Source: an uncultured Planctomycetales bacterium
Lineage (GTDB): Bacteria; Omnitrophota; Gorgyraeia; Zapsychrales; JAHFFX01
Direction: 5' to 3'
Assembly: GCA_964612665.1 (NCBI GenBank)
Contig: CAZTCI010000001.1
Coordinates: 636,896 to 700,895 of the forward strand
Length of the DNA stretch: 64,000 bases
Shown: positions 1 through 21,000 of the stretch, piece after piece
Layout of the letters: each line of letters opens with the position of its first letter
How positions within the stretch are numbered: the stretch's first letter is position 1
Notes under the pieces: model-generated
The model's database searches: none
What the model saw: only the letters and a program-made list of their open reading frames with translations
Told to the model about the DNA's origin: nothing
Translations under genes and position numbers: made by a program

Positions 1-3000
1 TTTTCTGTTGTTCTAAAGCCTGTTCTCGTTCATTTTCATACGCCTCAATTTCCTGATCCCCAAACCAATTCAATATTCTCGATGATGTGTTTTCTTGCTG
101 TCTACCTTCATCGATAGCAGCATATTGAGCCGCCAACCATTGTTCTTTTTCTTCTTGCTTTTGCTGCTGCTCTGCTTCGGCCTGTTGCCATGATGGCGAC
201 TCGGCAGTTATTTCTTTGTTATTGTTAATCGTTTTGACCTCAGATGTTTTTCTGGCTATGCCGTTATAAATTCTATCGCCAAAAGCTCTGACGATTCTTA
301 AGAGTTTAGTGCCCATCATGATGGAAACTTCAACAATGAAAATAAATACCCGTTTGAAGAAAATTTGGACATGGTCCCAACGATCAACCACAAAACCTAT
401 AATTACTTTCACGGCGATCAAAATGGCGCCAGAGAAAATTTTCGCGGCCATAACAATGACATTTGCCCACCATCGCAGATATTCTTGGGTCCATTGAATC
501 GCATCAAGAATTTGCAACACCACATGTCCCCAAATAAACTGGCTCCAAACCCTTAAAAATGTTTTGATCTGTCTCCAATCGTTCAATATCATCTCTGTTG
601 CTGGTGTAAGAATCTGATTCTGCATTACTTCTCGAGCTAAACGCAATTCATTCCAAAGAGTCTTCCCGAGCCAAACCAAAGCATCACTCCACCATTGCAA
701 CGATTCTTGGGCGGATTCAATCGCATCAAGAATTTGCAATCTCACATATTTCCGAATAAACCAGCCCCATATTCTGAAAAATACCCGTGTTCTTTCCCAA
801 CTATGGACGACAGCCACGACCATAGCTTTAATAGTTTTGATGGCTGCATTCCAAATCGAAATTCTAAAACGATTTAAACTATAGATGACCAAACTGACAA
901 AGCTAACCAACGCATTAATCATCAGGTCAGTGATGATTATTCCTAAAAGTAATCCGGTTTGAATGGCTCTAAGGGCCCGTTTTAAAATTTGATCCCGAAT
1001 CGTTTTCCCGGTTTTGATAGCTGCATCCCGAAGAGAAATTCTGATGCGGTTTAAACGATCCTTAACAAAGCTAATCACCTGATGAACCTTACGATCCACG
1101 AAGCTCGGGGTTCGAAGGAATAGGATTCGAACTAACTGGAGAATATCCATCACGGTTTTTTTGATTTGGATCACAGATTTTTTGATCAATCGCCCGGCCC
1201 AAATTGAAATATTCCTTATTCTTTCTAAAATCAGGTGAATCATTCTCAAGAATGAAGCTTCAATTCGTCTTACCGTCGGAATAATTGTCTTTTGCATCCA
1301 ATCAAGGGCCTTACTCTTGGCGAATGAAATCCTGGCCTGAATAGCACTCATCAGATTTCTGATCGCCGAGCGGATTCGATAAAGCACAGCCAAGCCCAGC
1401 AAGCCGCCCAAAGCAATCCAAACCATCGGATTCATCAAGACGATTTGTACGGCCGTTAAACTTAAAATCGCAGTTAGAAATACCCAACGGGCCATCTCGC
1501 TAACCGTTTCGGAAATTCTATGTTCTCTTGGAGTATAAGATTGCGCCATATTCCGTTCTTCCGGCATATGGCCGCGCCATTGGTTCTTCCTGATGAATGT
1601 TTCGTGATCGTTAAACTCAACTCGAAGGTCCGTCACAGCTTTCTTGAATTCTTCAATTTCCTGGCGGTGAATCAATTCTTCATTGGATGGAGTTGATTTT
1701 TCGGGAAGAGTCCCAATGGTTTGATTCATTACAGGCGTTTCATTAATAATTTTGATCCCGATCGGTTCCCATCCGTGTTCGGCCAAGTATTTAATCACAT
1801 GCTGTAATTCCGGCGTGACATCTTGGACCCATTGTGTAATATCAAACTCTGTACCAATAGGAATACGTCGGGCTCTGGCACCGCTTTCCTGAATCATTCT
1901 TTCAACAAAACCACCTTTGCCATAAACAAATGTTCCGATATGTCCCTCTTTTCTTGCCAAAGCAATAATAGTCCCCAAACCGCTTAAAGTTTGGTTCCCT
2001 CTGGGGCGGGAACTCTTGGCTGATCGGTCAAACTGAACACTCACTTTCCCATGATCCACCTTAAAGGTAAATGCGTTTACCGTCTGGGCTGTAACGACAA
2101 GGAGGAAATTAACCAAAATGAGCAGGACAACAACGGGTTTAAACAAAGATTTGAAGAAGGGTTTACTGACTTTTGCATTGCAAAAGTCTAGTACTAGGCC
2201 TTTTCTCCCTGAGAATGATAGAACAACCTTATCTTTGGAAGAGAAAAGGCCAGTAAAATGGATGACTTTGAAATCCACCTGCATTCGATTCAATTCCTTC
2301 CGGGAAAGATTTTTCAGGGAAATAATAGCGGTTTTTTCCGCACGGGTCCCGCGAACCGCGTTAAAGACGATGGAACTGATCAACAGTCCAATCACCCAGA
2401 TGGCGAGGATGGTGATTCCGACGACGATCAACGGATGGGAATTCATGAAATTCGAGAGCGGGGTGAAATCGAAGGCTTGGGCCGTCTTTGAACCCACTGC
2501 TTCTGCCCCCTTGCGCACCTTCATTGTCATCCGCGCGATGGTTTTTGATGCGGAATTTTCGCTGAGATAGGAGATTCGCCCGCCCTCTGTAATATCTGCG
2601 ATGGGAACGTTGATTTCTTTGCCTTTATTGAGCTGTCCGGAATCGGATATCGTCGACGTTGCAGCGCGGACGGAACCGCGGAGGTTGTTGATCCAAAGTG
2701 ATACTTCGCCCGGCACCGCTGCATAGATGGTGTAATGGTTGTGGTCTGTGGTCCAAACTTCCAGCACCATGGACGATGACAACAGGTGCAGATCAATCGA
2801 CGCTCTCTCTTCCTCGGTGTATTGCGGCTGCGGATATTTGACGAATTGTGGCGGCCAGCTGCTGCTGTCGATTAATTCAAAAACGCCTGGCTTAACTGAT
2901 GCCGTGTGCGCGATGAGATTCGATGAAGGGACCACGCCTGCGTTTATTTGTCGGATTCTGGTTTCGATGTCTTTTCTTAAAATCACCGGATTACCCAATT

Positions 3001-6000
3001 CCACATCCATGATGCTCTTCAATCCCTGGAACCACTCGTCGCTGCCGAGCTTCGCGGCCAATCGGTCCAAAACGACCTGCTGTGAAGTCCCGGCCAGGAT
3101 CGCGATCCGACGCAAATTCCTGACCGTTAACATCAACTCATTTAAATCCTCCTCATTAAGCTGCGCGTTGAAGATCGCTTCTTCTTTTTGAGAAATTCTT
3201 GTCAGAAGCATGGATACTGTAGTATCTCCGATGATATTCATCAAAAGTGTCCATCGGTCTTTCAAACCGAGGATCCAGATGGGCTGTTCCTCGAGCATTT
3301 TTCTTAATTGATGAATCAACCAATCGGGCAACTGAACGCGGTGATTTTGTAAGATAACGATAGCATCAATCAATTCCACCGGATTCATCTCCACCTTCTC
3401 CAAGGCCAACAAGGCCGTGATGATGTGTCCCTGAGAGACGAAAAATGTCATCGCATCGATCCGTTCAGCGCTGGTTAAGTTATGGAACAATCCGCGCAGA
3501 AAGCGGATACTTTCGTCCTGATTCTTTTCTTTTTCTGCCAAATAGACGGCGACTTGGCGCAAATAACTGATGGAGGCCAGCGTCTGAGAATCTTTCATCT
3601 CGGGCCCAATGATGAGAGCTGGATCAAAATAGTCGGGCAATAGATTGAACCGTCTCAGTAATTTCAAGTCTTCAATGGTTAATGAATAGGCATTTTGAGA
3701 ATTTACCACAACAACTTCGGTACGAAAATCGCCTAAGGTTCCGTTCATATACGCCAGAATTTCATTCACCAAGGAATCAATAGAGATGTTGTTATAGATG
3801 CGCGTGGCGGCCATTCCTGCTTTCAGTTCTGTCCAGCGGTTAGGATTTTTGACCTCCCGTCGCATTTCATTCAACAAGTCGATGATTTCTTTTTCTTCCG
3901 CCGAGAGTTGGGATTTTTGGGAAGCCGCGTAGGCTATCTTAAAGATTTTTTCCAAGTGGAGATGGGTCGGTTCATGAACCCGGCCTTCTCTGTCCTGTTC
4001 CGGCCGATTGCCCCAATAAAATTCTCCATCATACGCGACACCGCCCACCGAAGACTCTTTGACCGGTAAATACATTTGTGCCACACCTCGGTGATTTGAT
4101 CCCGTCCCGAATTGAAGAGTCGTCTTTTCGCCGCCCAGGATTCGGAATGTCAATTTGGCGAAATGCGCGCGGAAATGGGCGTTGATATCCATAATGTGCA
4201 TAAAGAACGGATTACGGATCAATTCGTGATAAATCTCTTGCGGGCTGAGGTTCTTAATAAACTGAATGATCGAAAGGGCTTTGCCGGCTGTGGATTGCTC
4301 GGCGCTGAGGATCGGTTGAACATCGAAATTATGGACAAGTTGGTCCGGTGTGGCGGCGAGGAAACGGACGCGGTTGATTAAAGTGGCCACCCGGACATCC
4401 GCTTCTCTCATGTCCGTCAGGGCGGAGGCGTCGATCGTTTCGCGGCTCCAACGGTGCCACAGATAAACCCGATCCAGTTGATTGTTTTGATAAAGCAAAA
4501 ACAACGGCAGCTTAACTTCTCGTTGGAATTTTAAGCTATGGAGATAACGGAAAGACCAGCGGCGTTCGTGGGCGAAGAATTCGGGCGAAACCAGAGTGAC
4601 TTGATAAGCGAAGATCGTATGATTGAGCCGGCCAGGATACAACCGCACGGGTTTCAATTGATGGACCATCAACCGTTTAATCTGTTGTTCTTTTAATCCG
4701 GAGAAAATGCGGTCGAGAATAAAATTCACATCTTTGCGGCCGCGAGCCAAGAAGGTCGCGACCATGGCCTTCGCTTTCTTTTCCAGCGTCTCCGACGACC
4801 CCGCTCCAGTTCCAAATACAGCCGCACCTATCGCCATCGATATCACAGTCCCCATTCCAAGCCCTTTGCTGATCATCAAAATTTGAATGAAGGCGATGAA
4901 GGCGATTAGGAATGGGAATATGCTTGCCGAATCATTCGGCGTCAACGTTGTTTGACCGTCGCCGGTCGATGTTTTGAGGCGGTTGCCTCTCAAGGCAATG
5001 TAGCGGATTAAGAGCGCAAGAATGGCGAAGGCGATCAATCCAACCAGCAGCGGATGGGCGGTCAGGAGATTTGTTAAGGCAGAAAAATCAATGGCATTAG
5101 TCTTATTCTCCGCATGCTTATTCATCGGACTTACCATCTCTAATTTAGCATCGACGATATTAATAAACTGTTGAACTTTTTGCCGTGCTTCTTCAATGAC
5201 TTCGGGATGAGAAATAAATTCGGCAGGGATTTCAGCGATAAGTTCATTCGTTTGAGTAGTCTTTAATGGCTGTTGACTGGCAACATCCCCTTCCTCCTCG
5301 CTGGGCAACACCTCAACCGGGACGACTTGAACCAATCGAATTTGCAATTGTCTCACCGCTTCTCGGGCAACGGCCAATTGCGCAAAGAATATTTTGCGAT
5401 CCGTTGGAACATCCAGGACTGTAAGCGATTGCCAAATTCTATTGACCCAAATTTCATACGGCTCATTGATTAATTCTTTACGCATTGGATGCTCCGCCGC
5501 AAATAAGGCAACTTCATAGAACACTCTCGCCGCAATAGCCATCTCGGTTGAATCGAATAGATTTCTCCAGTGGCTCCATGTTTCCTCTATGCTGGAAACG
5601 TATAAATCTTCGTCCCTTCTTTCTGACATGTCGTAATATTCTAAAATTCTTTTCCAAAAATCACCATTCCATTGCAATTGCAAAGGCATGTCGTCCCACT
5701 TAATAAATGAAGTGTCATATGAGAATCTCTTCGATTCTCGGACTTTAATATTATTGTACCCTCCCAGTTGAAACCAGACGCCATCCAAAGGATAGGTAAA
5801 TAATTCCTCCGGTTGCCGGACAGCTAACATAAAGCTTCCGTTGTCCTCATGGGACGTATTTGCAAAAAGCTTAAACGGATCGACTAAGAACGTCTGCTTA
5901 TTAGGCCAATAAGAATATACAGAAGATGAAACCACATCATTCAAGCCGTTTAAAATATTTCTTATGCGCTGGCGTGTCTCGGCAAAACCCGTCGTAATCA

Positions 6001-9000
6001 AGGCACTATGAAGATAGATGGCTAGCGTTAAGAAATAAATCAAATGCTGTCCCTCCGAAAGGGCTGATTTAATTCTGTCAACCGCCCTTTGTGCCTCAGG
6101 ATGAGATTGATCCCGTATCCAAGATTTTTTTCCAGGAACGATGAATAAAATCAAACCTAACGTTGCATAGATATCCGCCAGATTTAAGACAAACATAGGA
6201 ATGACTTCGCCGGTCGAAACGAAAACGTTCCAGCTCAACCAATCCCAGGCTCCGCCCTGCATAATGACCTCTATGTTGTTACTCAAACCAGCGCCTATCA
6301 TGAAACCAACGGCAATGGCCGATTTGCTCGAAAATCCAAAAAACAGCTCTTTTCTCAAAAGCCAAATCCATGGGGAAACAATAACCAGTAATAAGGAAGT
6401 TTCGAGATTAGGAGTAATGTGCAGGGTGGGCGTAATTCCCCAATTCCGAGACACAAGCCTAAGTAGTGTGCCAGTGATTCCGGATTCATCGGAAGGATCA
6501 AAGAATAGGGCTTTGATAAATCCTGTTTTAGCCAACGCTATTTGAACAAATTCCGATGAGGCAAAAGACAGTATAATATTTTTCGCAACTTGATCGGAAA
6601 TAATGGCAAACAACACAACGGAGATAAAAAGAATGGTTCGAGGATAATTTCTCCTTAATTCTCTCATGGCTCGGAAGGTTGATTCTCTGCCTTGCTTTAT
6701 CATCATCCATCCGACTGAAATGAAGATGATCGCGACGAAAATGCTTAAAGGAAGCCAGGAATGAACAACGTCCTTCTTCCCCTGCCGTCGGGCAAAGAAT
6801 TTTTTGATCATCGGCGGCGCGCGCGACCGGAGATTCATTTGATAGAGGCCGATCAAGATGACCACGGCGATGATTGCGCCGGCCAAGAGAAGCTGCGACG
6901 GAATAGATGAAATAAAATCCACATTCAACGCATTATTTTTCTGGATTTCTTTATTCTTATCTTGGTTCTGCTGTCTTTTCCCAGAAAAGCGGCGGATTAA
7001 GTCCAAGACGATCATTCCTATTGAACCGATAATCGAAATGTATCCTCCAATGTTTATGAAAACGTCAGCAACATTATAAGCGAAACGTCCGTAGTAAATA
7101 AAGTCCGCCACTCTTCCTCTATATAAGAGGCTTAAGCCATTGCTGAGGTGGCCAGACAACATCAATATGAAGCCCATAGAAACCCAAGGAGCCAATTGAA
7201 CCATCCAGTTCGACCAGACCGAAGTCTTCCCCTTGGTCCGAGAAATTACTAAGAGAAATGCCGCCATTGTGACTTGCATTAATCCCGTTAGGAAGGCCAC
7301 GACCAAAGCAGTGCCTTCCGTAATCTCCAACTGGTCATACAGTTCGTGAAATATATGCGGCAAAATATTCTCTGTTCCTACCAACCATTGAGTGAATTGA
7401 TCAAACGCTACGAGCAAAGACACAATCATAAAAACGCGTCGAGATGCCATCAGAATTCTTGTCGTTAGAGAAAGATCTTTTTCTAAATTATCTTCTAAGG
7501 TAGTCTGCTGAGCGCTGTCATCAACGTTTTCGTCTTTCAAATGAGGTTCGACGGGCTGTTCGTTAGTTTCTTTGGCCACATCTTTTCGATGATAGGCATT
7601 GTACAAATTAAGGATGGATATAATGACTGGTATAACTGACAAGAGAACGGCAAGACCAGCTAACGCCACAATTGCTCCGCCATTTATATTTAGCAGGTTA
7701 ATCAGGTTGTTTAAAATGGTGACGTCGAAGGCGTTGTGCTGCGTACCACGACGATTTTCTTCCTCACTAGAATTCCGCAGCTGCTGATCTTTGGCGCCTT
7801 CCCGTCGGTCAGACTTGTAGGAACTCGTATCCAAACGAATGACTTTACTTTTCGATTTCTTGACGATGATTTTGGGTTGATCAGGGATGCCGGCATTGTC
7901 CTTTTCGCTGAACTTAGTCGGCTCCGTGGATTTTTTGGCTTCGGCCTCGATGAGCTGCGTTAATTTTTCGATAATTCCGAGCATAACGTCTTTGCCCGAG
8001 GCATAGAAATGGTCGATCTCCCGACGGGAAATCTGAATCTGGCCGATCCATCTGGCCATGAAATCATTGCGGCTCAACCACAATGTCCGGGTCGCCGGCA
8101 ATCCCATACTGGACAATCCTCTCGAATGCTCTTTGTTTAAATGCAGGACGAGAATAGTTAAATCTCCAGAATTTTTCTCTGCACCGTTCTCCTCGTTGTG
8201 TTTTAACCCATTGGCCAAAGACAAGGTGACTGACCAGCGGATCCTCTCCATCAATTCTGAGAAAGGCAAGTCGATGACAGATCGATCAATATAGTAGAAT
8301 CCGCCGGTAAATCCTTCCTGACTCGCCTGAAGTTTTTGCGCATTCGATAATGTTGTTCCGTGGAACGCGATAGAATGTCGACGGAGATAATCTTTAGTTC
8401 GATATAACGCGTTGATGATCTCTGTTTGTTTGTCCGTGCGGGTGCCCATATCGTCGGAGGAATTTGCACTTTCCCGAATTTTTTGTTTAAATAAATTCCT
8501 GATGAATATCCATCCAATAACCGTCGCCGATATCGCGATCAATATCGAGAATCCAAATCCATGAACCTGCGTTTCCTGACGATGCTCTTCTTGTTCCATC
8601 CGGCCCTTCGAACGATGCGGCAGGACGATTGATTGCGATCGCTCGATCTGCTTCGGTGTGATGGATTGCACTTTATTCGCTTCTCCCTGCAATCGTTCCT
8701 CGCCCTTCATTTTCTTCGTCGATTTCTCCAAACGCCCTTCCCCTTTTCTTGATGTTAAATTCATCGGCAGATATTTGACCAGCTGATAGGGTGCGGGATA
8801 ATCGGCCACAAATAATCCCAGCCCTTGCCGTGTAAGAATCAGGGCGCCGACGCGATTTGTTGCTTGCGGGAAGCGTTCGGCCAGGAGATTTAAGTGCGGA
8901 TACTCTTGGTGGACCTTCTCTAACAAAGGTTGAAGCAGGTCTTCGGAATCGCTTCGATACCATAAGACGACGTTGTGTTGGGAAGATCCGGGAACAGACA

Positions 9001-12000
9001 TCATCCGACGGATGATATCCGGCAGAACTTCAAAGTGGTTGTTGTAATCTCCGGCTCTCAGCACATGACTGACCATTCCCACGGCTTGATGGTCTTGGAT
9101 ATAAATGCCCGCCACTCCCGCGCAGGTATAAATATCCTTGGTGCCGAGGATATCATTCAATTCAAATCTCTGATTAAATAGCGTTCTTCGCGCAGGAACA
9201 TTTAAGACATTATGCGTTTGCTCATTCGATGATTCATATTGGCTGAAGGGCACGGAGAATAACGCAAGACCATTTTCGGTTCTTCCGGAATAAAACGCTT
9301 CTAAATCAACCTGCTTGCCTGTTGTGAGATATGAGAAATGATCCGCTTGCGTCTGTGCGAAGAAGATGTTTGCCTGAGCGGCAAATTCCTCAGCAGATGT
9401 GGATTCAAATGTGTCGGCATGCTTTAAATTACCTTCATCGCCGAGCAGAGCGAGCGAAACTTTTCGGTTGTTTATCTGGGTTTTTAAAATCTTGGCGAGA
9501 ACAAAAATGATGGACTCAACAAAAACGGCATGCAATGTGGTGGAAGAATTGTCTGTATTTGCTGGCTTGGGAGAAGCAGTAACAGCAAGGGCGGATTCGG
9601 TGATATGGCTGGTGGATTTTGTTGGCGAATGTTCTTTTAAGGCGAGGTATTTGCGGAGGCTAATCAAAATTCCCTTAATAAAATTGACCCGACTACTTCC
9701 ATAGGAACGTTCGAGAACAAAAAGGCCGCGGCTCACTGGATTCTGCGATCCTAACGATGAGAATCCCAAATAAGATTGTTTAAGAATATGAAAACCTGCT
9801 TTGATAAACAACTCGGCCCAATCTTCCATCGACTTGTAATTGCCAGGAACCAACGGTTCTCGAATACCATTGCCGAGGAAATAATGAACGAACCAGTCGA
9901 CCCCATGCAGAAAGGCGATGCGCTCCTCGTCACTGGATAGTTTAAGGAAGTTCGCTTCGATGCTTTGCCGAAGTTCAGTAATGGTCTCCTCTTGTGCCTT
10001 AACGGATTCTACCGCCAAACGATTACTAAATGTATCCTCCAAAACTACCAGGCGACCACCGCGCCGAATCACACGACGTACCTCACGGAGATATTCTTCC
10101 AATGGCACATCAACATGATGCAGGGTAAACGCCATCAGGGCCGTATCTGCCACTTCGTTATCGAGCGGAATGGTGTCGGGCTTCACCATCAATTTAAAGC
10201 TCACACCTTCAGGGTAAGCATTTTTACGATACTCTTTTATATCAACCTCGATGGCTCGTTTGACCTTCGGGTTGAAACGGAGGCTACGCTCGCCGAATAT
10301 ACTAAGCCCCGCACCGATATTCACTAACGTGGGGCCAAAAATATCTGGACGCAAAAACGCCTCTTTTTGAACACAAGCCGGCAGTTCAATGGTTGGAGCG
10401 GTTAACGGACGGATATATTCTTCTCGCATGATCTTCAAGATACCGAATCTACGGTTGGCTTCCTCAATCACTTCATCAGATTGCTGATCGGCCTCATGCA
10501 AGAAAACAATCATTTTTTCAATTTCAGCCCGATCATCTTGTCGGCCTTTGTTTGGATAAGCAACAATCCAATCAACCATTAAATGCTGTCCAGCTTTGCT
10601 GTTTAGTATTCTGAGTGGATCACGAGAAAATATTGATACACTTGAAGGAAGAGCAAATGTGCGGTTAATGATTTTGGCAATTTTTGCTGTTGGCGAATGT
10701 TCTTTTAAAGCGAGATATTTGCGGAGGGGGATAAGGCTTAAAGTAACAGCAAAAATTATGGTAGAGATAAGAATACTAAACCCAGTAAGATCAGATACAA
10801 CTATGGAGGTTTTGGAATCTGATGAATCTGATTCAGCGGCTTCTTTTTTCTGAGTCAATATCGAAAGTTCATTCTCAAGGCGAGGTAACAGTTCCTTTGC
10901 AGCTGTTAATTTGTTTCGTAATTTGATGAATTTGGGATCTTCACTGTATTCAAATCGTAGCCGGCTTTGATACTCACGGATGTCTCTGTTAATTTTAGCT
11001 ATTTTGCGGGTTAATTTTACTTCGCGGTAAATTTCGGGGATGAGTATTCTTAATACACCTCGCGTTAAAGCATCAATAATGAAAACCCCTAAAAAGCTAA
11101 TTGCGGCTCCAAACATCCCAACAAAATAGGACAGGGCGTATGCAGTGAACATAAAGCGTATATACCACGCCGTTCTCTCATATGGATTTATTGGTGGAGG
11201 GAATGAAATGTAGTTTGGAATAGTGCTACCCGCTAATAGTGATGCAACCATCCCTCCATAAAGAATAATCAATCCAAAACTTAACCTTCTTCCTCCATCC
11301 TTTTGGAAAAATACATCCCAAACAAATCCTGCCGCCACAGCAATGACAGCCATCACTAAACCAAGTATCAAATAAGATTCGACTTCAATAATAGAAATTT
11401 CATAATTCTTTGTATCAAATGAACGGATATGTGCTGGAGGAGCTCTGGAGTCAGATAATAATTTATAAATGCCCAAAATTACAATCAAAGCGCCCACAAT
11501 AAAGAGGGTGATTATTGGATAACTTAACAAATAAATTAATACAGAAATTTCAAAGGCAAAAAGATTGTTAGAGTTGTCATCATTCTTGTCATTCTTTGTT
11601 TTTATTCTAAGTATTTCTTTAATTCTATTCCATCGCGCTTGGCGTTTGATTCTTTCCGCTTCTTTTCGTTCCTGCCTGACATGATAATTCTTTATTCTAT
11701 CCTGTAATAGATCCCAGTCCTCTTTCCAACGTGGATATGAAGGATTTTCTTCTGGAATAATTTGTCTTTCAACATATCTAAAATCAGATTCATCCTGATT
11801 TGATCCAGTCTGGAAATATTCTCTTTCACTGTATGTTTTTAACCTTTCATATCTCTTTTCTAATTCTTTAATCCGTTTTTCAAATGGGGTTCGTATGTCA
11901 TATAAGATTGCTTTAATCAATCCATGAATCATTATCCCTATGATGACAAGAGCTCCTATTATAAATGGATAGAGGCCTGGACTTATTGCTTGAACTATTC

Positions 12001-15000
12001 TTTCAAAGATAGCCAGCCAATCGACAGGCAAGATCATCATTAAAACAGATAACACTGCAAATATAATTCCCATAATATCCAGTGGCGAAAGGAGGTTTAA
12101 CTTTTGGCCAGGATCTTTATTCCCGTCCTTCTTCTTTTCCTTTTTAGCTTTATCTTTTGCTATGTTCGCCTGTAAACGATCCCAACGGAATTTCCATGCT
12201 TTATAATCTGGATGATCTTCTGGATTAATTTCTTTTTCTCTATACTCATAATGTGTCTCATCCATATAAGAGCCTCCTATATATGGAATTCTTTCCGTTA
12301 TCTTTCTCATGGCTTCATATTCCCTTTTCAATCGCATTCGCTGTAAATCAAGTGGTGTTATTCTTTCATATATCAATGGCTTAAAAAAGCCAAACCAAAG
12401 CGTCGCACCTACCGCCCAGACAAAAAGTATAATAAACGGCCATGCACCAGGCGAAACAAATGCAACAAAACGTTCCAAAATGCCAGCTAAATCCCAGGGT
12501 AACAAAAATAATCCAAAGATTGACCACGAGAGAATAATCAGCATAATGTGTCCCTCACGAGATATTTTTCCTGATCGTGATCTAATTATGTTCCAAAGAC
12601 CAATCCCCAATCGGTTAAAACGCTGAACAAAAGTATTAAATAAGTTCCACATATCTCTCCAAAGATTAAGTTCTTTTGGATCTTCTCTCCAATAGATAAA
12701 TCGATAAAGATCTTCAAACGTTAACCTCAATACGAAACCGACATTACTTAAGCCGTGCCTAAACAAATAGCCAGTCACGATAGCCGTGACAATACCACTG
12801 AAAATATTGTAGAAAGGTACTCCAAAGAATTTTAACAATGCCATCACCGGAATCATGAAAATAAGTATTGTGAATTTATTACTTCTTAAAATTATCTGTA
12901 TAAATGCATCTACGTTTCTATAACCATTTCTTGCCACTCTTAATAATAATAAAAGTTTACGATCCATCTTGACTGCATAGTGCCATATTAAAGCAACGGT
13001 AGCTAAAACCGTCCAAACGATATCGGCTGGTAAATTTAAGGCTTTCAAAATTAAGAGAATAATGACAATAATTGGTAAAAGGCGGATTTCTCTGCGTCTT
13101 CCATACGCTTCACTTAACTTCATGCCATTTAGCAAAGGTTTCTGTACAAAAACTTTATTCCATAAAGTTTCTCTCAATCGGCTCGGATGTATTAAATCAG
13201 ATCTATTGAGGCTAGTTGCCCATATATCTTGCAAATTGCGTAATCTATATTGTTTAGTAAATGCGCCGTATGGCATAGTACCCGTCAAGAAAGAAAGCGC
13301 CGCTAAAAGATATGGTAATGTAATAACTGGTCCCCAAGAAGTCGTAGCGAAGAAGGAGACGATCCATGAAATGATCATCAAAAATGCTACTGTACCATTA
13401 AACGGAAATGGGGTGCTAAAAGGATTGTTCAAAATTTGGTTCAAGATGATAAGGCTAAAGCCAATACCCATGGTAACCAGAGGGCCAAGATAAACTGGCC
13501 ATATAATAAATCTTACCAATAATCCACCAACAAAGATAATCCAACCAAACCACCGAGCGATTCGAATAGCAGTGGGATTATTCAAAATACGGCTAAAAAT
13601 AATCAGACCGAGACCAAAAACTATTACAATCAACAGGCTCGGATTAAATGGCCATATAATAAAGCTTAATAATAATCCCCCAATTAAGCTCATCCAACCA
13701 AGCCAGTTAATCATCCGCGTACGAGAATTATTCCAATTCCAAATCCGGCTAAAGATAATAAGAGCAACTCCAAAATCAATTATAAATATAGGTGCAAATT
13801 TGAACGGCCACATGCCAAATCCTAAGAACGCACCAATGAAAATTGTCCAGCCAGCCCAACGGGCAATCTGAGCCGCTAATGGTGACCTTGATACTTTAAA
13901 TTCCAAGTACATGGTTTCTTGATATCTCTCCCTTGTATTTCTCTTAGTTAATAAAGAATCTTTTACTGTCGGAATAAATTTAAACTTTTCGTTAGCTGCC
14001 AGTAAAATCGCTCTCGGGAAGCTAACAATTAACGTTACATAGAAATTAAATCCTTTACGTATATCATTTAAAGTTAAGGCTATGGCTTTATAGATACTTC
14101 CTTCTTCTCTTAAATGACGCAAGAAATCATTAGCGTTAATGGCCTGCATCAAGAATGTACTTAAGACAGTGAAGACCAATACAGATTGTAAATAAGCAAA
14201 TGAACTATAAGGTGCGCCGGCCGGAAGCAGAATACCTAAAGCTAAAGCAAATATAGAAGAGAAATAATGGAGGAATAAGAAGATATGAGATAACTTTACA
14301 TCGTATCCTATTTTATCATTATAGAATAATTGATACTGCCCACGATCCATCATAAAACGAGTTACGTTAAAGGCATAACGTTGCTCTGTTGCATAAATTG
14401 ATTCCGCGAGTAACGATGGACGACCCCACTCAAAAGCCATCCAGTCAATCTGAGTTGATGTTACAAAGGGATGACGGCTCTGCAAAGATAAAAATGCTGC
14501 CGAATCTTCGCCGGGTGGAGAAAGCATCGTATCGCCAGCTGCTGGTGTTATTAATGCTTTACCGTAAAATGTCAAAAGACCTCGGCGGCCACGCTGTACA
14601 TCAGAAGTGAAGGTTTCCTGAGAAACTTTATAAAGGGCAGTAACTGGGAATGCATCTGTGGCTGAATCCCAAATGCGCATCATTGGATTGATAACCATAA
14701 TTTCAGGATTTCTTCCCACAAAACTGGCCCAAATTGGACGCCAAATATTTTGACCTGGATAAGTGCGAACATGAGCATCGTAATTGGCTGAACGGCCATA
14801 GGTCAACCACAAGTTAGTCCCAATACCACCGTTTTTATTTAAAGGAATTGGATTATCATTTTCTTTCCACCAATCCGTCGTATCTGGTTTCCGCATATAG
14901 AATGGTAAATAGACATTAGTAATGTCTGTCTTATGAATAACGGTTGAAATCTTAACCAAATTATCCCAATTGGGAAGTTTTCCGCGCACTTTTAAAATCG

Positions 15001-18000
15001 AAGCATAATTTTGTGAACGAAATTCCAGAACGACGCGGGCTGTATCGATCAAATTTTCTGATTCAACATAATTGTTCCCTTTATCATCCGTTTTTAATAA
15101 TCCTTTGGATTGGAACGCTGCACGGAATTGTTGAATAAGATATGCTTCTTCGGCGTTAAGTTTCCTCATATCAGCATTAATGATTCCATTCAAAATCTTA
15201 AAGCGGTAATGCCGCTCAGGGGTACGGTCGACAAATTGTCCCCAAATAGTTGCGTCTTGATAAATTGATCGCAATTTCAATAAGACCCGCTGCTTGTAGA
15301 CCAAGTATTTATCTAAGAAATCTGGTTTCAAAAAGCTGTCTGTTAACTTTTGAGCTTGATCCCGATAAGCTTCTTCCAAAGATGTATATAACTCTGATAA
15401 ATATCGAACAGCCTTATGATAGCTATAATCGCTAAATTGAGATGCAATCATTAAATGATAAACAATCTGATCATGGGCCATGTTCTCAACCACTTTATAA
15501 TTCGATGGACGAGACTCATTAAGAAATCCTTCCATTGCAGAAACAATCTCCATTTTATCTTCAGGGGTTAGATACCAATGATTTTCAAAAATAATTTTAT
15601 TAAAATCGGTAGTTTCATGAGCCCCGCGCAATTCTTCAACCACCGCATTAAATCTTTCTCCTTTTTGTCTTAACAAGGCAAGCGTATTGTCATATTGTGG
15701 TTTATGCGTTATCGCCATATATCCTAACAGAGAAACTTTCTTAGAAATTGGATCAATAGTTCTCTTATCTTTTATCTGCAGAGGATCAAACGAACCGGGT
15801 TGAGCAATAATCTCATAAGAGTATACAAAGGTTTCATCGGTCGTCTGGACATGCGTTGAAGTTCCTTGCAAATGCTCAAACACATCCATCATTGGTTTCT
15901 TCTGGCTAAAGGTATAGAAGGTCGTATACAAGAATTCTCGACCGAGGGCAGATTCGGGAATCACAAACTTATGTGCCTGAGGATTTTCGATGGCCAGGAG
16001 GATTTCATTAATTTCTGCACTGCTTATAACACCCGATTTATATCTTTCAAGAAATATCCGACGGAATTTCTGTTTAACCGTTTCTCCACTAGGTAATGGT
16101 AGACCATATTCTTTTTCAACCTTTAAGAATTCTTTATACCAACGTGTATAGAAGGATTCCCATCTACCTTTTTGCCAGAAAAGAATCCGTGCTATTGTCT
16201 TATTTCTTATTAAGCCTAACCTTATTAAAGAACGCCAGCTGATCAAGCTCCGGCCTGTTCTGCTCCAAGTGTTTACAACAGAAAGAATGTAGCTCTTAAT
16301 TACCACTGCAAAATGATAAATCGACATCAATGTTGGTAAAGCGCTTAATGACCAAATAGCAAACGTAATCCAGAAACCTAATGAACCAAATTGAATAACA
16401 TCGAACTTCCAGAAAAGATAATGTGGTAAAACACCAAAAACGTACAATGACGTTATCGTAAAGACTGATATCCAAAGTACTCTTTCTGAGAAATATCTAA
16501 CCTGGCCGTATAGTAAAACCGGTAAGATAATTGATAACGAAAAGATTGCCATTCCTACTGCTAAGTATGGCTTCACAATACCAATGTATAAGCCTATTCC
16601 GATGCCAAGAACCATCAAGGATATAACGTTGACCAGCCTAATTCCGCTTTCAATTCCCCAGAAGGCCCGCTTTATGAACATAAAGAAAATTCTAGAATAC
16701 ACATGCACAAGACCTCTCCAACCTTCAGTTCTTCTATCAAACCACGCCGCCCATGGAGAATGTTGTGCTGCTAATCTTAGGGTCAATGTTTTAAAGGGAT
16801 TCAAGAATCGTATAATATCAACTTCATTTTCTGCGTTTGCATAAGCTCTTCCACCAATAGCTCTGTATAGTCTTTCCAAGTCTTCGGAAGTACGATCATT
16901 GTTATAAAATGCTTTGCTAAGATCATTGAAATAATCAAAATGCCATTTTACGGCCTCTGATACCTTGGCAAATTTCATATTCTGTTCACCTAAAAATTCA
17001 TCATTTTCCTCTAATGTCTCATGCGTATAATTCTCATAAACAACTGTTAAAAGATTTTCCCATTCATTAAGGCCTTGTTCGTGGTCCATTTCCGACAACA
17101 TACTTATCAAATCATTAAAATCGAGATCTGAAAATATTTCTATTAACCTTTGAAGAGGCTGGAATTCACCTTGATTTTGAGGTTGAGTAATCCACCACAA
17201 TAAGCCTGGCATTCTGCCAAACTTTACAACACCGTCATTAGGGTTCTTATATTTCTCTTCATACCAATCATTGAGCCAGAAAAGATGCGTCCAAATTTCA
17301 GCATGCATCTTAATTCGTTGCATGACTTTTCTCGAAATCTCATCAAAAGCAATTCCCTGTTGTCTACCTTCATTAATGTAGTAGGCAGCCTCGCGTGCAG
17401 CAAAAACCGCTACAGGGAACATGGTCGCAATTCCTCCCATCGAATAGCCTTTTGTTTCAGAAGGCGCAAGCTGAGTAAATCTATGAAGAACAATTTCGAG
17501 CATGGTGGTTGGTTCAACACTTCTTGCAATTGGATAAGGATTAACTTCTACATTATCATTGTTCGAAATTTGCGCTGGTTGGATATACAAGAAGCGATAC
17601 ACTTCACTTACAATACTTTCAAAGAGCCGATCTAAAATTTCTTGATTAATTTGAGCGCCGATCCCCGTATGAACAATTCTCAAAAATTCTTCAAACTGTG
17701 GACGAATTATCTGATTAATTAATACTTCTCCTACAAACTCTCGGAAAGCTGCGCTGTCCCCTGTTTTTTCAATATATTCTTGAGCTAGATCTGCCAGAAA
17801 CTCTTCAGGGTTATTTGTGTTCAGAAGGTTTGTCTGAAGAATAAAGGATAGAATTTTTACTCCAGGTGTGGGCAAGAAATTCCGCACGGCTTCTAACCCG
17901 CCTTCTTGAGTTACAATTCTGGTAAGAAGTTCTCGGTCGGCTGCAGCCAAAACTAAATCTTTAAGCTGGTTCCAGAAATTAGCGCCCTCTGGTTCTTCTA

Positions 18001-21000
18001 TTTGCGGAATAATATTTCTCAAAATGTCATCAGCTGACACAAAACCGTGTTCAATCAAATACTGTACTACCATCGCTTTTGAGTAATGCTGTCTAGATGC
18101 GGCCTCAATTTGCGGTAATATTGGCTGTGAAATTTGAATATCTGGTGCCGGTATCTGATAACGTGGTTCATAATTCTCCTCTTCAAAGACTACTCTATTT
18201 TGAATCGTCAATCGAACAATCACTTCAATCTCTTCGGGAGTTAGTTCGATAAAGTAATTAGTAAGCGCATTTCTCTGTTGTTGTGAATTTAAATGCTTTG
18301 GTAAGACAAAATTGCTAGAAAGTTCTTTATGCATTAGTATTTTATTTGCTAAAACTTCTGCACTAGAACGATTAACTTGTGTACTTAGAATATTGCTTAA
18401 ACGTTCAAACCGCATTTTTACTGAATTGACGTTTCTTGTATGAATAATTACGGAGGCTAAGGTTGGCCTTCTTAATACAAAGGTAGCAAATATATTAACT
18501 AAAGTAATAATAGAGCTCAGGAACGAGAGGCTAAGGATTGATAAAGTCGAAATAAGCCAGAAATTAAAGAAGAAGTAACCATCGTATTCAATCTCAAAAG
18601 GATTACGGAAGAACAATCTTATGTAATCGACATAAATATCTTTAGTCAATGGGAGGCCATTTCTTAAATTCACATTGAATCTATTGGTCTCCGTTGTGTT
18701 CTTGGCCGTCTGAGCAACCATGTCTGCAACTCGGTCGAGGCTAATTCTATCTTTAACAAATTGACCTCCGATAAATAATCCATAAATATATCCTGGGATT
18801 CCATTTCTGAGTTTGTCCGGATTGGTGTAGTCATATACATTCAAACGGACAAAATCTCCCTCCAGAATCGCAAATAATTCATTATTACGAATAACTCGAT
18901 GTACTGGTTTAGTAATTGGTGTTGGCGAGTAGATATCTTCCGAATTGATCAAATATAAGTCACCGTTTTCACGGTAAACATTAGTTGAGAACAGACTGTA
19001 AAGATATTCTTTGGGTTTATTTTCTCCGACAAAAGGATATTGCAAATTACTTTGGACACCGCGCCAGCCTAGAGGAATCCGGGTTAGCCCTAGAGGGAAA
19101 TCCTCACGTGTATAAAGTTTAAATTCTTCTTTAACATAATGTTCGAAAACAATGCCAGTTCTATAATTGAATCCTAAAAAGATATCTCTTCCACCTGTAA
19201 ATTCGACCCCATCACGATATTCATATAAGACCCTATAAATATATTCATTCTCAGCTTTATTGTGTTGTACAAACTCCGTCTCTCTTAAAATACGGCCAAG
19301 TTTATTGGACACTGCGACTTCACCTGAAGCAATACCAACTGGCTGATTCTTTTGTTCGTATTGTATAAACCGAGTAAGACCTCTTGTTTCTTTAACATAG
19401 TAACGTGATAATGGATCATTAGCACCCAAATAACGAGTTTGCATTAAGACTTGTTTAGTCTCATCCTGGTTAACGAGTAAATAGCTGTTGATCTTCGCTA
19501 ACTTTGTTTCATGTAGAAGCGCTATATTTTTATTAATCAACGTCTTTTGGAGATTCTTATCGTATTGTTTAATTAAAGAGTTTGGCTCAACATTAGAATC
19601 TACAGTTTCCTGTTTAAACATGATGCCTAAATAGGAGAACTCATAACCCATTTGAGCATTCTGTCCTTCCCATTTAACGTTAATAACTGCATTTTGTTCA
19701 ACATTGCTTGAAACGAAAATTAAAACGCGGGCCAAAGGATCTTCAGTAATACGGAAGAAGAAGACCGTTCCGTCGTCCTTGGTTTCAGTTCGGGCTTTAA
19801 TGACTTTAATATCTCTTGGCAAGTTAGCAGAAATAGCAATTTCGCGTATGCCTTCAACTAATTTTTCAGTCGCTTTTGCCCGAAGCACATCACCCTGAAT
19901 GAAATTGAGGTCTTCGATGATTTCTTTTACTTCTGGACCATTATCACCAAAATGAATTGAAAATTCTTTCTCATCATAAGCTTCTTTAAAGATGTCTTTA
20001 GATTCATCAAAAATGTAAGTATCTTTTTCTTTTCTTGCTTGGAAAGTCAAACGATCTGCTTTGCCGTCCCCAACTTTGGCCTCTTGAGACAAAACTTCAA
20101 TGAAATAATTGTCAGATAAATTATCTTTATCGATACTAGCCATTAATTCTTGGCCTTCATAGGCACGAGATTTCTTTAAAGTTCCGTTAGGCAGAATTTC
20201 ATCAATAACCGTCCACGCTTCATTGTTGACTTTGGCATTAGTATTAACGGAATATCCGTAAACACCTAAATCAGTTAAAATTGTGTAATAGCCATTAATA
20301 TTACGGAAATAATAAATCGAACTGACTAATTCCTCTCCAGAATAACCTCGAATCTTATTAATTTCTGGTGATAAGCTACCAGCTGCTTTCTTAGTTTTAT
20401 CAATAACAACTACGCGACCATCTACAGTTTCTTCATGACCTGAGATCTGCAGTTTTTCACGACCCAAGACTGGATAGAATCTTAAGCCTTCTTCTCCCGT
20501 CAATGGATTAATACCAAAAACTCGTTCCAAATTACCTAAACGTAATGTCTTATCTGCAACCAGAATAGTTTCTCCTGTCATTTTTTCGTTACTTGACACT
20601 TCAGCTAAACTATGACGTTCGACAATATTAAACTTCTTACCTAAAACTTCCTGAGTACCAACGACTCTTGAAATAGCAATTGGATAAATAGTTAATGAAG
20701 GTTCTTTTTGTTTTCTCAAAAAGTCTTCTAGTTTATAAATACGAGATTCGCTTGGACTTACTAAAAGTTCGGCCTCAGCTTTGGAGAAATCACCTCGCAG
20801 ATAAATGCGCGCTTCAGTTACTTTATCAAAACCTTTGACTTCATATTTAGTCACCTCTTTTATCTTACGATACATATCCCGTGGCAATGTCTTCAATTCA
20901 TCCAAGGTCACATAAAAGCCTTGACCATTCTGAAGTACAACTAAAAAGCGTTCGGATCGGATCGTCTCCATAATTTCCTCACCGCTGGCACCAGGAAGGA

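Follow-up and report, generated by a model that had tools for sequence, protein, structure and literature searches.

The giant open reading frame

The DNA analysed here, a stretch of 64,000 nucleotides referred to as the 64-kb window, is occupied by one giant open reading frame (ORF), and no other large ORF lies in it (Table 1). Embedded in the giant frame are Pfam matches to SLT, Peptidase_A8, Peptidase_M50, GGDEF, HATPase_c and, twice, Methyltransf_11, together with 72 hydropathy peaks resembling transmembrane (TM) segments. The frame shows the features by which giant multi-enzyme proteins are recognised: it exceeds 10,000 aa, has many TM helices and contains enzyme domains at scattered positions. 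From its sequence it looks like part of a giant gene for a multi-enzyme membrane protein of the Omnitrophota type. As far as those proteins (Archaeovorin-type) are described in passages of two reports (10.1101/2023.11.21.568195; 10.64898/2026.06.07.730766), the likeness extends to the frame of more than 21,000 codons, the many TM segments and the scattered methyltransferase, HATPase_c, signal-peptidase-II, peptidase and SLT content. Relatives of the methyltransferase module described below likewise lie in Omnitrophota metagenome-assembled genomes (MAGs).

Table 1. Features of the 64-kb window, with positions numbered from its first nucleotide and the repeat copies named in gene orientation.
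Feature	Position	Strand	Description
Giant ORF	2..64000	-	Uninterrupted, no stop; runs off both window ends; at least 21,333 codons
Third island, upstream copy, ASDNAMLRDQESAP	62055..62096	-	aa ~636-649; 40/42 nt match to 60480-60521
Third island, downstream copy, ASDNAMLRDEESAP	60480..60521	-	aa ~1,161-1,174; 1575 nt from partner
Second island, upstream copy, DRAELVKDEDEKSSISS	54705..54755	-	aa 3,083-3,099; 49/51 nt match to 53997-54047
Second island, downstream copy, DRAELVKDGNEKSSISS	53997..54047	-	aa 3,319-3,335; 708 nt from partner
TM helix, TGFSILISTIIFAVTLSLIP	10728..10786	-	aa ~17,739-17,758; abuts R1; hydropathy peak 2.31 at aa 17,741
R1, upstream copy	10688..10727	-	Encodes LRKYLALKEHSPT; aa 17,759-17,771; straight after TM helix
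N-side linker, AKIAKIINRTFALPSSVSIFSR	10622..10687	-	22 aa, from R1 to conserved module; without homologue
Conserved methyltransferase module	9698..10621	-	~308 aa; aa 17,794-18,101; DPLRIL…FVLER and three further residues
GC3 step, support interval	10331..10558	-	aa 17,815-17,890; 0.32 to 0.49; inside module, not at repeat
Methyltransf_11 (PF08241) match	10043..10261	-	aa 17,914-17,986; E = 1.2e-6; 29.5 bits against a cut-off of 21.2
C-side linker, SSRVNFIKGILIS	9660..9697	-	13 aa; aa 18,102-18,114; from module to R2
R2, downstream copy	9620..9659	-	Encodes LRKYLALKEHSPT; aa 18,115-18,127

A near-identical repeat pair

Two copies of a short sequence, R1 and R2, bracket a segment of the frame that is called X. 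An earlier note on this DNA had described them as near-identical copies of 39 nt (9621-9659 and 10689-10727) with a common peptide, and exact alignment bears this out: 37 of the 39 bases match, and the minus strand reads LRKYLALKEHSPT in each. Taken as 40 bases (9620-9659, which is TGTTGGCGAATGTTCTTTTAAGGCGAGGTATTTGCGGAGG, against 10688-10727, which contains AAAGCGAGATATT), the identity is 38 of 40. The copies are spaced by 1068 nt from start to start, or 356 codons, with the module between them, so a deletion from one to the other would, as had also been proposed, take out the methyltransferase without shifting the frame.

The match is real and exceeds what chance would produce. Its two sites are the only ones within the 64-kb window at up to three mismatches, and none of 100 dinucleotide-preserving shuffles gave any match at the same tolerance. 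Both differences between the copies are at synonymous third positions (TAT/TAC and GCT/GCC), with 11 of the 13 third positions identical; in the old internal peptide repeats of the giant gene (ALKALYM, GFSILI), almost every synonymous site differs. The duplication is genuine and comparatively young at the nucleotide level, and this counts for a gain of the bracketed module. The GFSILI match (aa 17,740 and 18,483) is old or a chance match, because its nucleotides differ at most synonymous sites. A regulatory or RNA role of the repeat was also rejected: no promoter-like site was found, terminator-like sites occur at chance level and outside the repeats, and no Rfam family was found in the 64-kb window.

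On both sides, the flanks of R1 and R2 show no relation to each other in either nucleotides or protein, and the edges of the island are sharp. In principle, the pair could be all that is left of a longer tandem duplication, the interior having since been replaced or become unrecognisable by divergence, and decayed tandem duplications do exist in the giant gene (13422-13705, 72% identity; 467-782, 77% identity). On either side, however, the identity of 95% falls to background over a single codon, and decay acting uniformly could not have left only 40 nt intact. Because alignments of the flanks reach scores no higher than those of shuffled sequences, a decayed longer duplication was rejected, and an origin of this kind is considered very improbable.

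Further repeat islands in the same frame

Two further islands in the frame share the format of the R1/R2 pair, being 42-51 nt long, direct, in frame and 0.7-1.6 kb apart, with two mismatches and with flanks that are unrelated in each; half of their nucleotide differences are non-synonymous. No inverted or long-range pair comparable to the islands was found in the window. A five-member connector family (DRAELV) with graded divergence includes the downstream copy of the second island, and two members of this family flank the HATPase_c match. The islands and the connector family count for a gain of the methyltransferase module between R1 and R2. The interiors of the second and third islands contain no domain recognisable with Pfam, NCBIfam or PDB, which counts against the module-gain reading.

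The islands also bear on whether R–X–R exists in any real genome. The DNA source is probably a metagenome assembly, in which a strain bubble or repeat might have been mis-threaded. The two differences between the copies indicate, though, that R1 and R2 were not collapsed and re-expanded; moreover, the 21,333-codon frame stays open across both junctions, X holds a complete module with intact ends, and the same pattern occurs in the two other islands. An assembly artefact is accordingly held to be most unlikely.

The bracketed methyltransferase module

The earlier note had placed a second class I methyltransferase domain between the copies, and one of the two Methyltransf_11 matches does fall there, the other being at aa ~5,574-5,636. 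Since R1 adjoins a TM helix, it constitutes a positively charged juxtamembrane segment. The conserved module beyond it begins with a helical N-terminal extension of ~90 aa, which is followed by a class I SAM-dependent methyltransferase (MTase) core. The family profile matches class I MTases of the PDB, down to E = 9e-9 (e.g. 3mgg and 1xxl). Motif I is glycine-rich (NIGAGLS). Its G103 and G105 are the same in all 9 homologues compared, as is D127, the acidic residue after strand 2 (EVDI); the position before motif I that is usually acidic is occupied by Asn in the module and in its two closest relatives. By profile threshold and motif criteria, the module is predicted to be a class I SAM-dependent MTase. 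It is like the known members (Methyltransf_11; 3mgg, 1xxl) in its core, glycine-rich motif I and acidic residue after strand 2, but it differs from them in the conserved extension, and its C-terminal DWFxHxF…PLVPGNY…GSRNPxSRG region is common only to a small uncharacterised subfamily. In NCBIfam the module scores below all cut-offs, and an AlphaFold2 model built from a 2-sequence alignment was unusable (mean pLDDT 33.5) for judging a Rossmann-like seven-strand fold. The first methyltransferase of the frame was rejected as donor of the second, the similarity being only 35% identity over 46 aa.

A search with a query that spans the module gave 344 matches; the best, P0001, is 52% identical to it across query positions 144-457. 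Alignments to relatives are confined to aa 17,794-18,101, and homology extends from 22 aa past R1 to 13 aa before R2. The module is also found as a complete free-standing gene of 302 aa (L010) and inside unrelated large proteins, e.g. after radical-SAM domains or before HEAT repeats. The view that the interior of X is one complete, discrete and portable unit is supported by these sequence comparisons, and it counts for module gain.

Connector motifs at the edges of related modules

In the closest relative of the module (L001), an in-frame nucleotide repeat, GCGAGTTTGGG (ASLG), flanks the module, and all three copies of ASLG in this ORF have the same codons (P ~1e-4). In four further proteins (P0002, P0108, P0035 and P0012), both edges of the module fall on a recurrent motif of the protein concerned, RSELR or [AE]SLG; in related large proteins RSELR occurs 12-13 times and ASLG 11 times. 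On the other hand, the module is present without flanking repeats in L002 and L003, which are from Candidatus Omnitrophota MAGs, and in L004, which is labelled Planctomycetales, and this counts against the module-gain reading.

In another account, the module requires LRKYLALKEHSPT at each of its sides. The peptide might be a site of cleavage or processing that frees the methyltransferase from a polyprotein, or a docking helix of juxtamembrane or amphipathic type, and selection would preserve both copies; a role of this kind can be layered on either mutational origin. The punctuation of related large proteins by RSELR/ASLG exactly at module edges speaks for this account. The synonymous nature of both R1/R2 differences, for which the probability under neutrality is estimated at ~0.06, points the same way, as do the Peptidase_M50 and Peptidase_A8 domains in the same frame, and passages of a study of giant genes raise proteolytic processing into smaller polypeptides, with cleavage points unknown (10.1101/2023.11.21.568195). 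The peptide is, however, absent from the rest of the 21,333 aa and from 150 homologues, even with 6 substitutions allowed. Peptide selection alone cannot explain the 11 of 13 identical third positions, and half of the differences in the other two islands are non-synonymous. We know of no protease specificity for the LRKYLALKEHSPT motif, and we regard a connector maintained by function as an improbable explanation of the pair.

Composition of the bracketed segment

The GC content, GC3 and codon usage of X overall are ordinary for the giant gene, and a foreign origin was rejected on these measures, as the whole of X gives no signal. Internally, GC3 is 0.23 in the first 60 codons and 0.47 in the remainder (p = 6e-4), the former resembling the upstream block and the latter the downstream block. 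The best position of the step is aa 17,832; a step at the R1 end is 7.1 lnL units worse, and one at R2 is ~12 worse. Because the step lies inside X, X does not look like a uniform recent import, and this argues against a single recent import of a uniform foreign cassette. TM content was rejected as the cause of the GC3 mosaic, its Spearman correlation being not significant.

The composition of X, continuous with its neighbours on each side, also suits a different account, in which X is native, a 13-codon patch was copied over ~1 kb by template switching or ectopic micro-conversion, and the bracketing is coincidental. All island pairs are direct and lie within 0.7-1.6 kb, and the three islands begin on a codon boundary and, one chance base aside, come close to whole numbers of codons (39, 51 and 42 nt); in-frame insertion of a patch requires whole-codon islands and target duplication does not, so this format favours the patch. 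What a patch leaves unexplained is an autonomous unit of 308 aa with margins of 13-22 aa, for which the chance is roughly ~1-2% (an estimate that takes into account how few domains can be recognised in 21,333 aa), as well as the nucleotide bracket in L001 and the connector motifs at the module edges of other proteins. A short templated patch is judged unlikely, if still worth serious consideration.

Searches for orthologues and mobility machinery

Neither an orthologue of the flanks nor an empty site (a single R without X) was found in any protein, genome or metagenome collection searched. Word-indexed protein searches with the 601-aa region, the family alignment and the P0002 segment returned nothing or only P0010, and a single-protein search of genome and metagenome contigs gave no related locus. 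A search of such contigs with a 3-sequence alignment recovered relatives of the module only, at 37-52% identity, and orthologues of the giant gene were absent from the results; the exact repeat was absent from viral contigs. Because no empty site or orthologue was found, it is from the anatomy of the locus that an insertion is inferred.

No recombinase or integrase family was detected in the 21,333-aa frame at E <= 0.01. X has no transposase, its interior encoding only the methyltransferase module, and no terminal inverted repeats at its ends; no donor copy of X was found in the window. The giant frame gave no match to a reverse transcriptase. For a TR/VR pair of a diversity-generating retroelement (DGR), the criteria applied were changes only at adenines of the template, a repeat length of ~60-150 nt and a neighbouring reverse transcriptase. 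A DGR TR/VR pair was rejected on this basis: only 2 of ~9 adenines differ in the R1/R2 pair (D9), the differences in islands D1 and D5 are not adenine-specific, and the islands measure 40-51 nt.

Proposed origin of the repeat pair

Of the accounts considered, the likeliest is that R1 and R2 are the scar of a gene-sized methyltransferase unit built into the open frame just after the TM helix, a reading that is held tentatively and given somewhat less than an even chance. In the ancestral state, the TM helix would have been followed by LRKYLALKEHSPT and then by KSTSH…. A unit consisting of a linker, the 308-aa module and a second linker would have entered at or next to the R stretch, and the entry would have duplicated ~39-40 nt of the target or connector, giving R–X–R. 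This may have occurred by fill-in of a staggered or template-switched junction, or by way of a circular R+X intermediate that integrated by single crossover at a pre-existing R. The two routes would be indistinguishable on the present sequence, with which insertion, Campbell-type integration or a short copied patch would all be compatible. The in-frame product would set a cytoplasmic SAM-methyltransferase beside a membrane anchor. The earlier note's idea of a domain-cassette footprint is upheld in so far as the bracketed unit is portable, the repeat young, further islands present and the closest module relative bracketed by a repeat of its own; it is weakened in that no recombinase or empty site was found and the GC3 step lies inside the insert.

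Once formed, R–X–R would be a substrate for in-frame loss of the module, with recombination or replication slippage deleting exactly 1068 nt. The predicted product is …ACTTTAAGCCTTATCCCC-[one R]-AAATCCACCAGCCAT…, with the peptide TLSLIPLRKYLALKEHSPTKSTSH. RecA-dependent recombination in E. coli has a threshold of roughly 30 bp (PMC2884548), and the R1/R2 pair, at 40 nt and 95% identity, is just above it.

A broader and more doubtful proposition is that giant genes grow and shrink by in-frame cassettes, with nucleotide-conserved connectors of ~11-50 nt acting as recombination sites. Each gene-sized module (the methyltransferase, HATPase_c and others) may then receive a duplicated connector and be excisable or movable between connectors, and the three R–X–R islands, the DRAELV family, the ASLG brackets of L001 and the RSELR/ASLG punctuation may be traces of one process. 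Among Omnitrophota giant proteins, PF08241 and PF02518 are the most recurrent Pfams of one co-occurrence module (10.64898/2026.06.07.730766), which counts for the gain of the methyltransferase module at R1/R2.

Comparison with known systems

Duplicated host sequence flanking added DNA, as in R–X–R, is also produced by transposon target-site duplication and by the repeat duplication of CRISPR spacer integration. Target duplications of bacterial transposons are typically 2-15 bp; to our knowledge, one of 39-40 nt exceeds those of known bacterial transposons, and this counts against the module-gain reading. Although R1 and R2 abut the segment as a target-site duplication would, they are 39-40 nt long, and X, which lacks a transposase and terminal inverted repeats, is an in-frame protein module and not an element. 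With the attL/attR sites of Campbell-type integration, the pair shares direct repeats of tens of bases that flank a segment and whose recombination would excise it precisely, but here the 64-kb window has no integrase or recombinase, and the segment measures just 1 kb and forms an in-frame part of the translated host gene. The small variable segments of bacterial genes (Touzain et al. 2010, PMC2884548) are alike in being in frame, in membrane or surface genes and associated with short direct repeats; there, however, the polymorphism is between strains, whereas here one haplotype is available and variability is a prediction. For the giant genes themselves, the passages searched (West-Roberts et al. 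2023; Nielsen & Lui 2026; 10.1101/2023.11.21.568195; 10.64898/2026.06.07.730766) describe domain content and contain nothing on short in-frame direct repeats bracketing modules, nor on a mechanism of module gain.

Implications for the evolution of giant genes

The origin of bacterial ORFs with tens of thousands of codons is an open question. A gene-sized enzyme module within a young 40-nt in-frame duplication would be a concrete, datable footprint of module gain, and it predicts loss too; the further islands in the giant gene and the analogous brackets in relatives strengthen the case. If the pattern fails, what remains is one ordinary illegitimate-recombination scar in an extraordinary gene. 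If it holds across giant genes, their evolution would become testable with existing long-read metagenomes and catalogues of hundreds of giant genes, and connector peptides would serve as functional or mechanistic landmarks for dissecting giant proteins. A cassette mechanism, if true, would explain the assembly of ORFs of 20,000 to 150,000 codons in a way that can be tested.

Repeat pair and enclosed module

An earlier note described near-identical direct repeats that encode the same peptide, and exact alignment bears this out: R1, the upstream copy in gene orientation, and R2, the downstream copy, agree at 38 of 40 bases and both read LRKYLALKEHSPT on the minus strand. The window holds just these two copies, with no further site at up to three mismatches, and none of 100 dinucleotide-preserving shuffles yielded any match, so the resemblance is beyond chance. 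The peptide is found nowhere else in the 21,333-aa giant protein, nor, with up to six substitutions allowed, in the 150 matches listed of the 344 module homologues. Both mismatches are synonymous and in third position (TAT/TAC and GCT/GCC), 11 of 13 third codon positions being the same; in contrast, almost no synonymous site agrees between the copies of two old peptide repeats of the gene, ALKALYM (aa 13,604 and 13,939) and GFSILI (aa 17,740 and 18,483). The duplication of R1 and R2 is young at the nucleotide level. Outside the copies identity drops from 95% to background within one codon on either side, and alignments of their flanks score no higher than shuffles; edges as sharp as these make the remnant of a larger tandem duplication very improbable. 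An assembly artefact is equally improbable, given that the copies differ from each other, no stop interrupts the frame and nothing of the module is missing. Searches of the window tied no recombinase, transposase, terminal inverted repeat, promoter-like site or RNA family to the repeats.

A stretch of 601 aa with the repeats around its centre served as query for an exhaustive HMMER search against 1.84 billion representative proteins. Every one of the 344 matches lies on the interior between the repeats; neither the R1-side nor the R2-side flank had a homologue in that set, and no orthologue of the flanks was present in the collections searched. The best matches, P0001 (52% identity) and P0002 (46%), span query positions 144-457, from DPLRIL to FVLER. 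The module so delimited is formed by a conserved N-terminal extension of ~90 aa and a class I SAM-methyltransferase core, which exceeds the curated threshold for PF08241, matches class I methyltransferases of the PDB with E as low as 9e-9, and has a glycine-rich motif I and an invariant acidic residue after strand 2. One relative, P0010, is a complete free-standing gene of 302 aa with the same ends as the module, and others follow radical-SAM domains, precede HEAT repeats, or lie deep within proteins of 4,700-6,200 aa; the module is portable. The linkers measure 22 aa from the end of R1 to the module and 13 aa from its 308-aa part to the start of R2, so that a single complete module, the size of a gene, takes up nearly all of the space between the repeats, as the claim that they flank the second methyltransferase had held. 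The claim that a deletion would be in frame also stands, since the spacing equals 356 codons and loss between the copies would keep the frame. The first Methyltransf_11 of the frame is a distant relation (35% identity over 46 aa), and no peptide repeat flanks it.

Coordinates of the repeats, connectors and domains (window positions unless a locus is named)
Feature	Position	Strand	Amino acids	Remarks
R1	10688-10727	minus	17,759-17,771	encodes LRKYLALKEHSPT
R2	9620-9659	minus	18,115-18,127	encodes LRKYLALKEHSPT
Module			~17,794-18,101	second Methyltransf_11
Island D9 (R1/R2)	9620-9659 / 10688-10727	minus		38/40 nt; start-to-start spacing 1068 nt; LRKYLALKEHSPT
Island D1	53997-54047 / 54705-54755	minus		49/51 nt; spacing 708 nt; DRAELVKD..EKSSISS
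Island D5	60480-60521 / 62055-62096	minus		40/42 nt; spacing 1575 nt; ASDNAMLRD.ESAP
Connector family	60434, 56936, 54752, 54044, 53192		1,188; 2,355; 3,083; 3,319; 3,603
First Methyltransf_11	47,093-47,281		5,574-5,636
Peptidase_M50	~39,240-39,930		8,023-8,254	weak match; inside giant frame
SLT lytic transglycosylase	~31,900-32,190		10,605-10,699	inside giant frame
Signal peptidase II (Peptidase_A8)	~7,025-7,423		18,860-18,992	E = 1.6e-12; inside giant frame
ASLG connectors, 11-mer GCGAGTTTGGG	L001 9980, 10946, 13877			all three of the ORF
REP-like TGTCATTCCCGCGAAAGCGGGAATCCA	L002 4625-4653, 9021-9051, 9475-9504, 13393-13467, 14273-14301	both

The giant open frame and its composition

Positions 2-64000 (minus strand) are a single open frame of 21,333 codons, stop-free in the standard code and running off both ends, and the other frames hold just five ORFs of at least 150 aa. 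The frame contains 72 TM-like hydropathy peaks and Pfam matches to SLT, Peptidase_M50, Peptidase_A8, GGDEF, HATPase_c and, twice, Methyltransf_11, in agreement with the multi-enzyme, membrane-anchored giant proteins reported for Omnitrophota (10.1101/2023.11.21.568195; 10.64898/2026.06.07.730766). Two decayed local tandem duplications, in frame and copying TM-helix or helical units, were also observed at 13422-13705 (131 nt at 72% identity, 153 nt apart) and 467-782 (94 nt at 77%, 222 nt apart); they are older than the repeat islands and different in type.

The insert between R1 and R2 has GC and GC3 at the gene's median for segments of that length, and its codon usage is unremarkable for the giant gene. 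The compositional continuity of the insert with its neighbours would suit an insert native to its position, with only a short templated patch having been copied, and the codon alignment of the islands and their lengths, roughly multiples of three, point the same way; this origin is nevertheless unlikely, as it leaves the bracketing of a domain unexplained. The frame is a compositional mosaic unrelated to TM content: a block of ~10 kb (aa ~14,400-17,830, window ~10,510-20,800) has a GC3 of 0.24-0.35, against 0.45-0.58 on either side, which suggests that segments of the giant ORF have different histories. At its downstream edge the block breaks off in a sharp step (ΔlnL 44.6), whose best position is aa 17,832; the support interval, aa 17,815-17,890, falls inside the methyltransferase module, and moving the step to the end of R1 costs 7.1 lnL units, moving it to R2 ~12. 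Within the insert, GC3 is 0.23 in the first 60 codons and 0.47 in the remainder (p = 6e-4). If the module did come in as a single uniform import, some exchange must have crossed it afterwards.

Repeat islands and connectors

Exactly three isolated repeat islands (D9, D1 and D5) occur across the whole window, all of them direct, in frame and with two mismatches apiece, and no comparable inverted pair is present, the longest exact inverted match being 18 nt. The D5 copies enclose 507 aa in which no domain was recognised. D1 is part of a five-member connector family, (D/N)RAELV(K)…S(S/P)I(S/N)S, with graded nucleotide divergence, and the HATPase_c match (aa 3,427-3,523) lies between its last two members.

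The (D/N)RAELV connector resembles the RSELR type of punctuation found in related large proteins, where one short motif recurs roughly every 200-500 aa at domain edges: RSE[LM]R in the module homologues P0002, P0108, P0141 and P0076, and [AE]SLG in P0035, P0001 and P0012. The module has RSELR 3 aa before it and 2 aa after it in P0002, and the protein's own motif at or near both edges in P0108 (RSELR), P0035 (ASLG) and P0012 (ESLG); in these proteins the motifs occur 11-13 times per 4,400-5,900 aa. RSELR often precedes Met and once a twin-arginine signal peptide (P0141 aa 3855), which suggests that it may mark former gene starts or processing sites; of 217 full-text literature matches for the string, the top 10 were all unrelated machine-learning papers. 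In L001, the locus of the closest relative, the module is bracketed by in-frame copies of GCGAGTTTGGG (ASLG) 966 nt apart, with a third copy in the same ORF 2.9 kb downstream and none elsewhere in the 20.9-kb locus. The three copies are codon-identical (probability ~1e-4 under the ORF's own codon usage), so that conservation goes beyond the peptide to the nucleotide level, and a purine-rich, Shine-Dalgarno-like run (TAAGGAG, TGAGGAG) comes after each. Not every relative has the bracket: in L002, L003 and L004 no repeats flank the module. The L002 contig (= L005), from an Omnitrophota MAG, contains a palindromic REP-like element, also inside open frames.

These motifs, together with the purely synonymous differences between R1 and R2, hint at a functional connector or processing peptide maintained by selection, a rather improbable explanation, somewhat more so than the templated patch, and compatible with either origin.

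Origin of the repeat pair

The explanation with the most support, put at slightly less than even chances, is that R1 and R2 are a duplicated target or connector left when the module was incorporated into the reading frame just after a TM helix. Candidate routes would be a staggered or template-switched junction followed by fill-in, or Campbell-type integration at a single repeat of a circle carrying one repeat and the insert. Duplication during gain of the module would explain a young, sharp-edged, direct, in-frame and local island and its exact enclosure of an autonomous unit, and would account for the other two islands, the graded connector family and the brackets in relatives. The earlier reading of a cassette footprint is supported in part. 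It would be the most economical one, and gains circumstantial intragenic and comparative support from the islands and the relatives' brackets, but the GC3 step within the insert opposes its simplest form. In length the repeats sit just over the threshold of ~30 bp of homology given in PMC2884548, and recombination or slippage between them would be predicted to delete the methyltransferase in frame. An insertion scar flanked by direct repeats is a known kind of feature; the unusual points here are how long the repeats are, that the cargo is in frame and as large as a gene, and that it all lies within a giant ORF.
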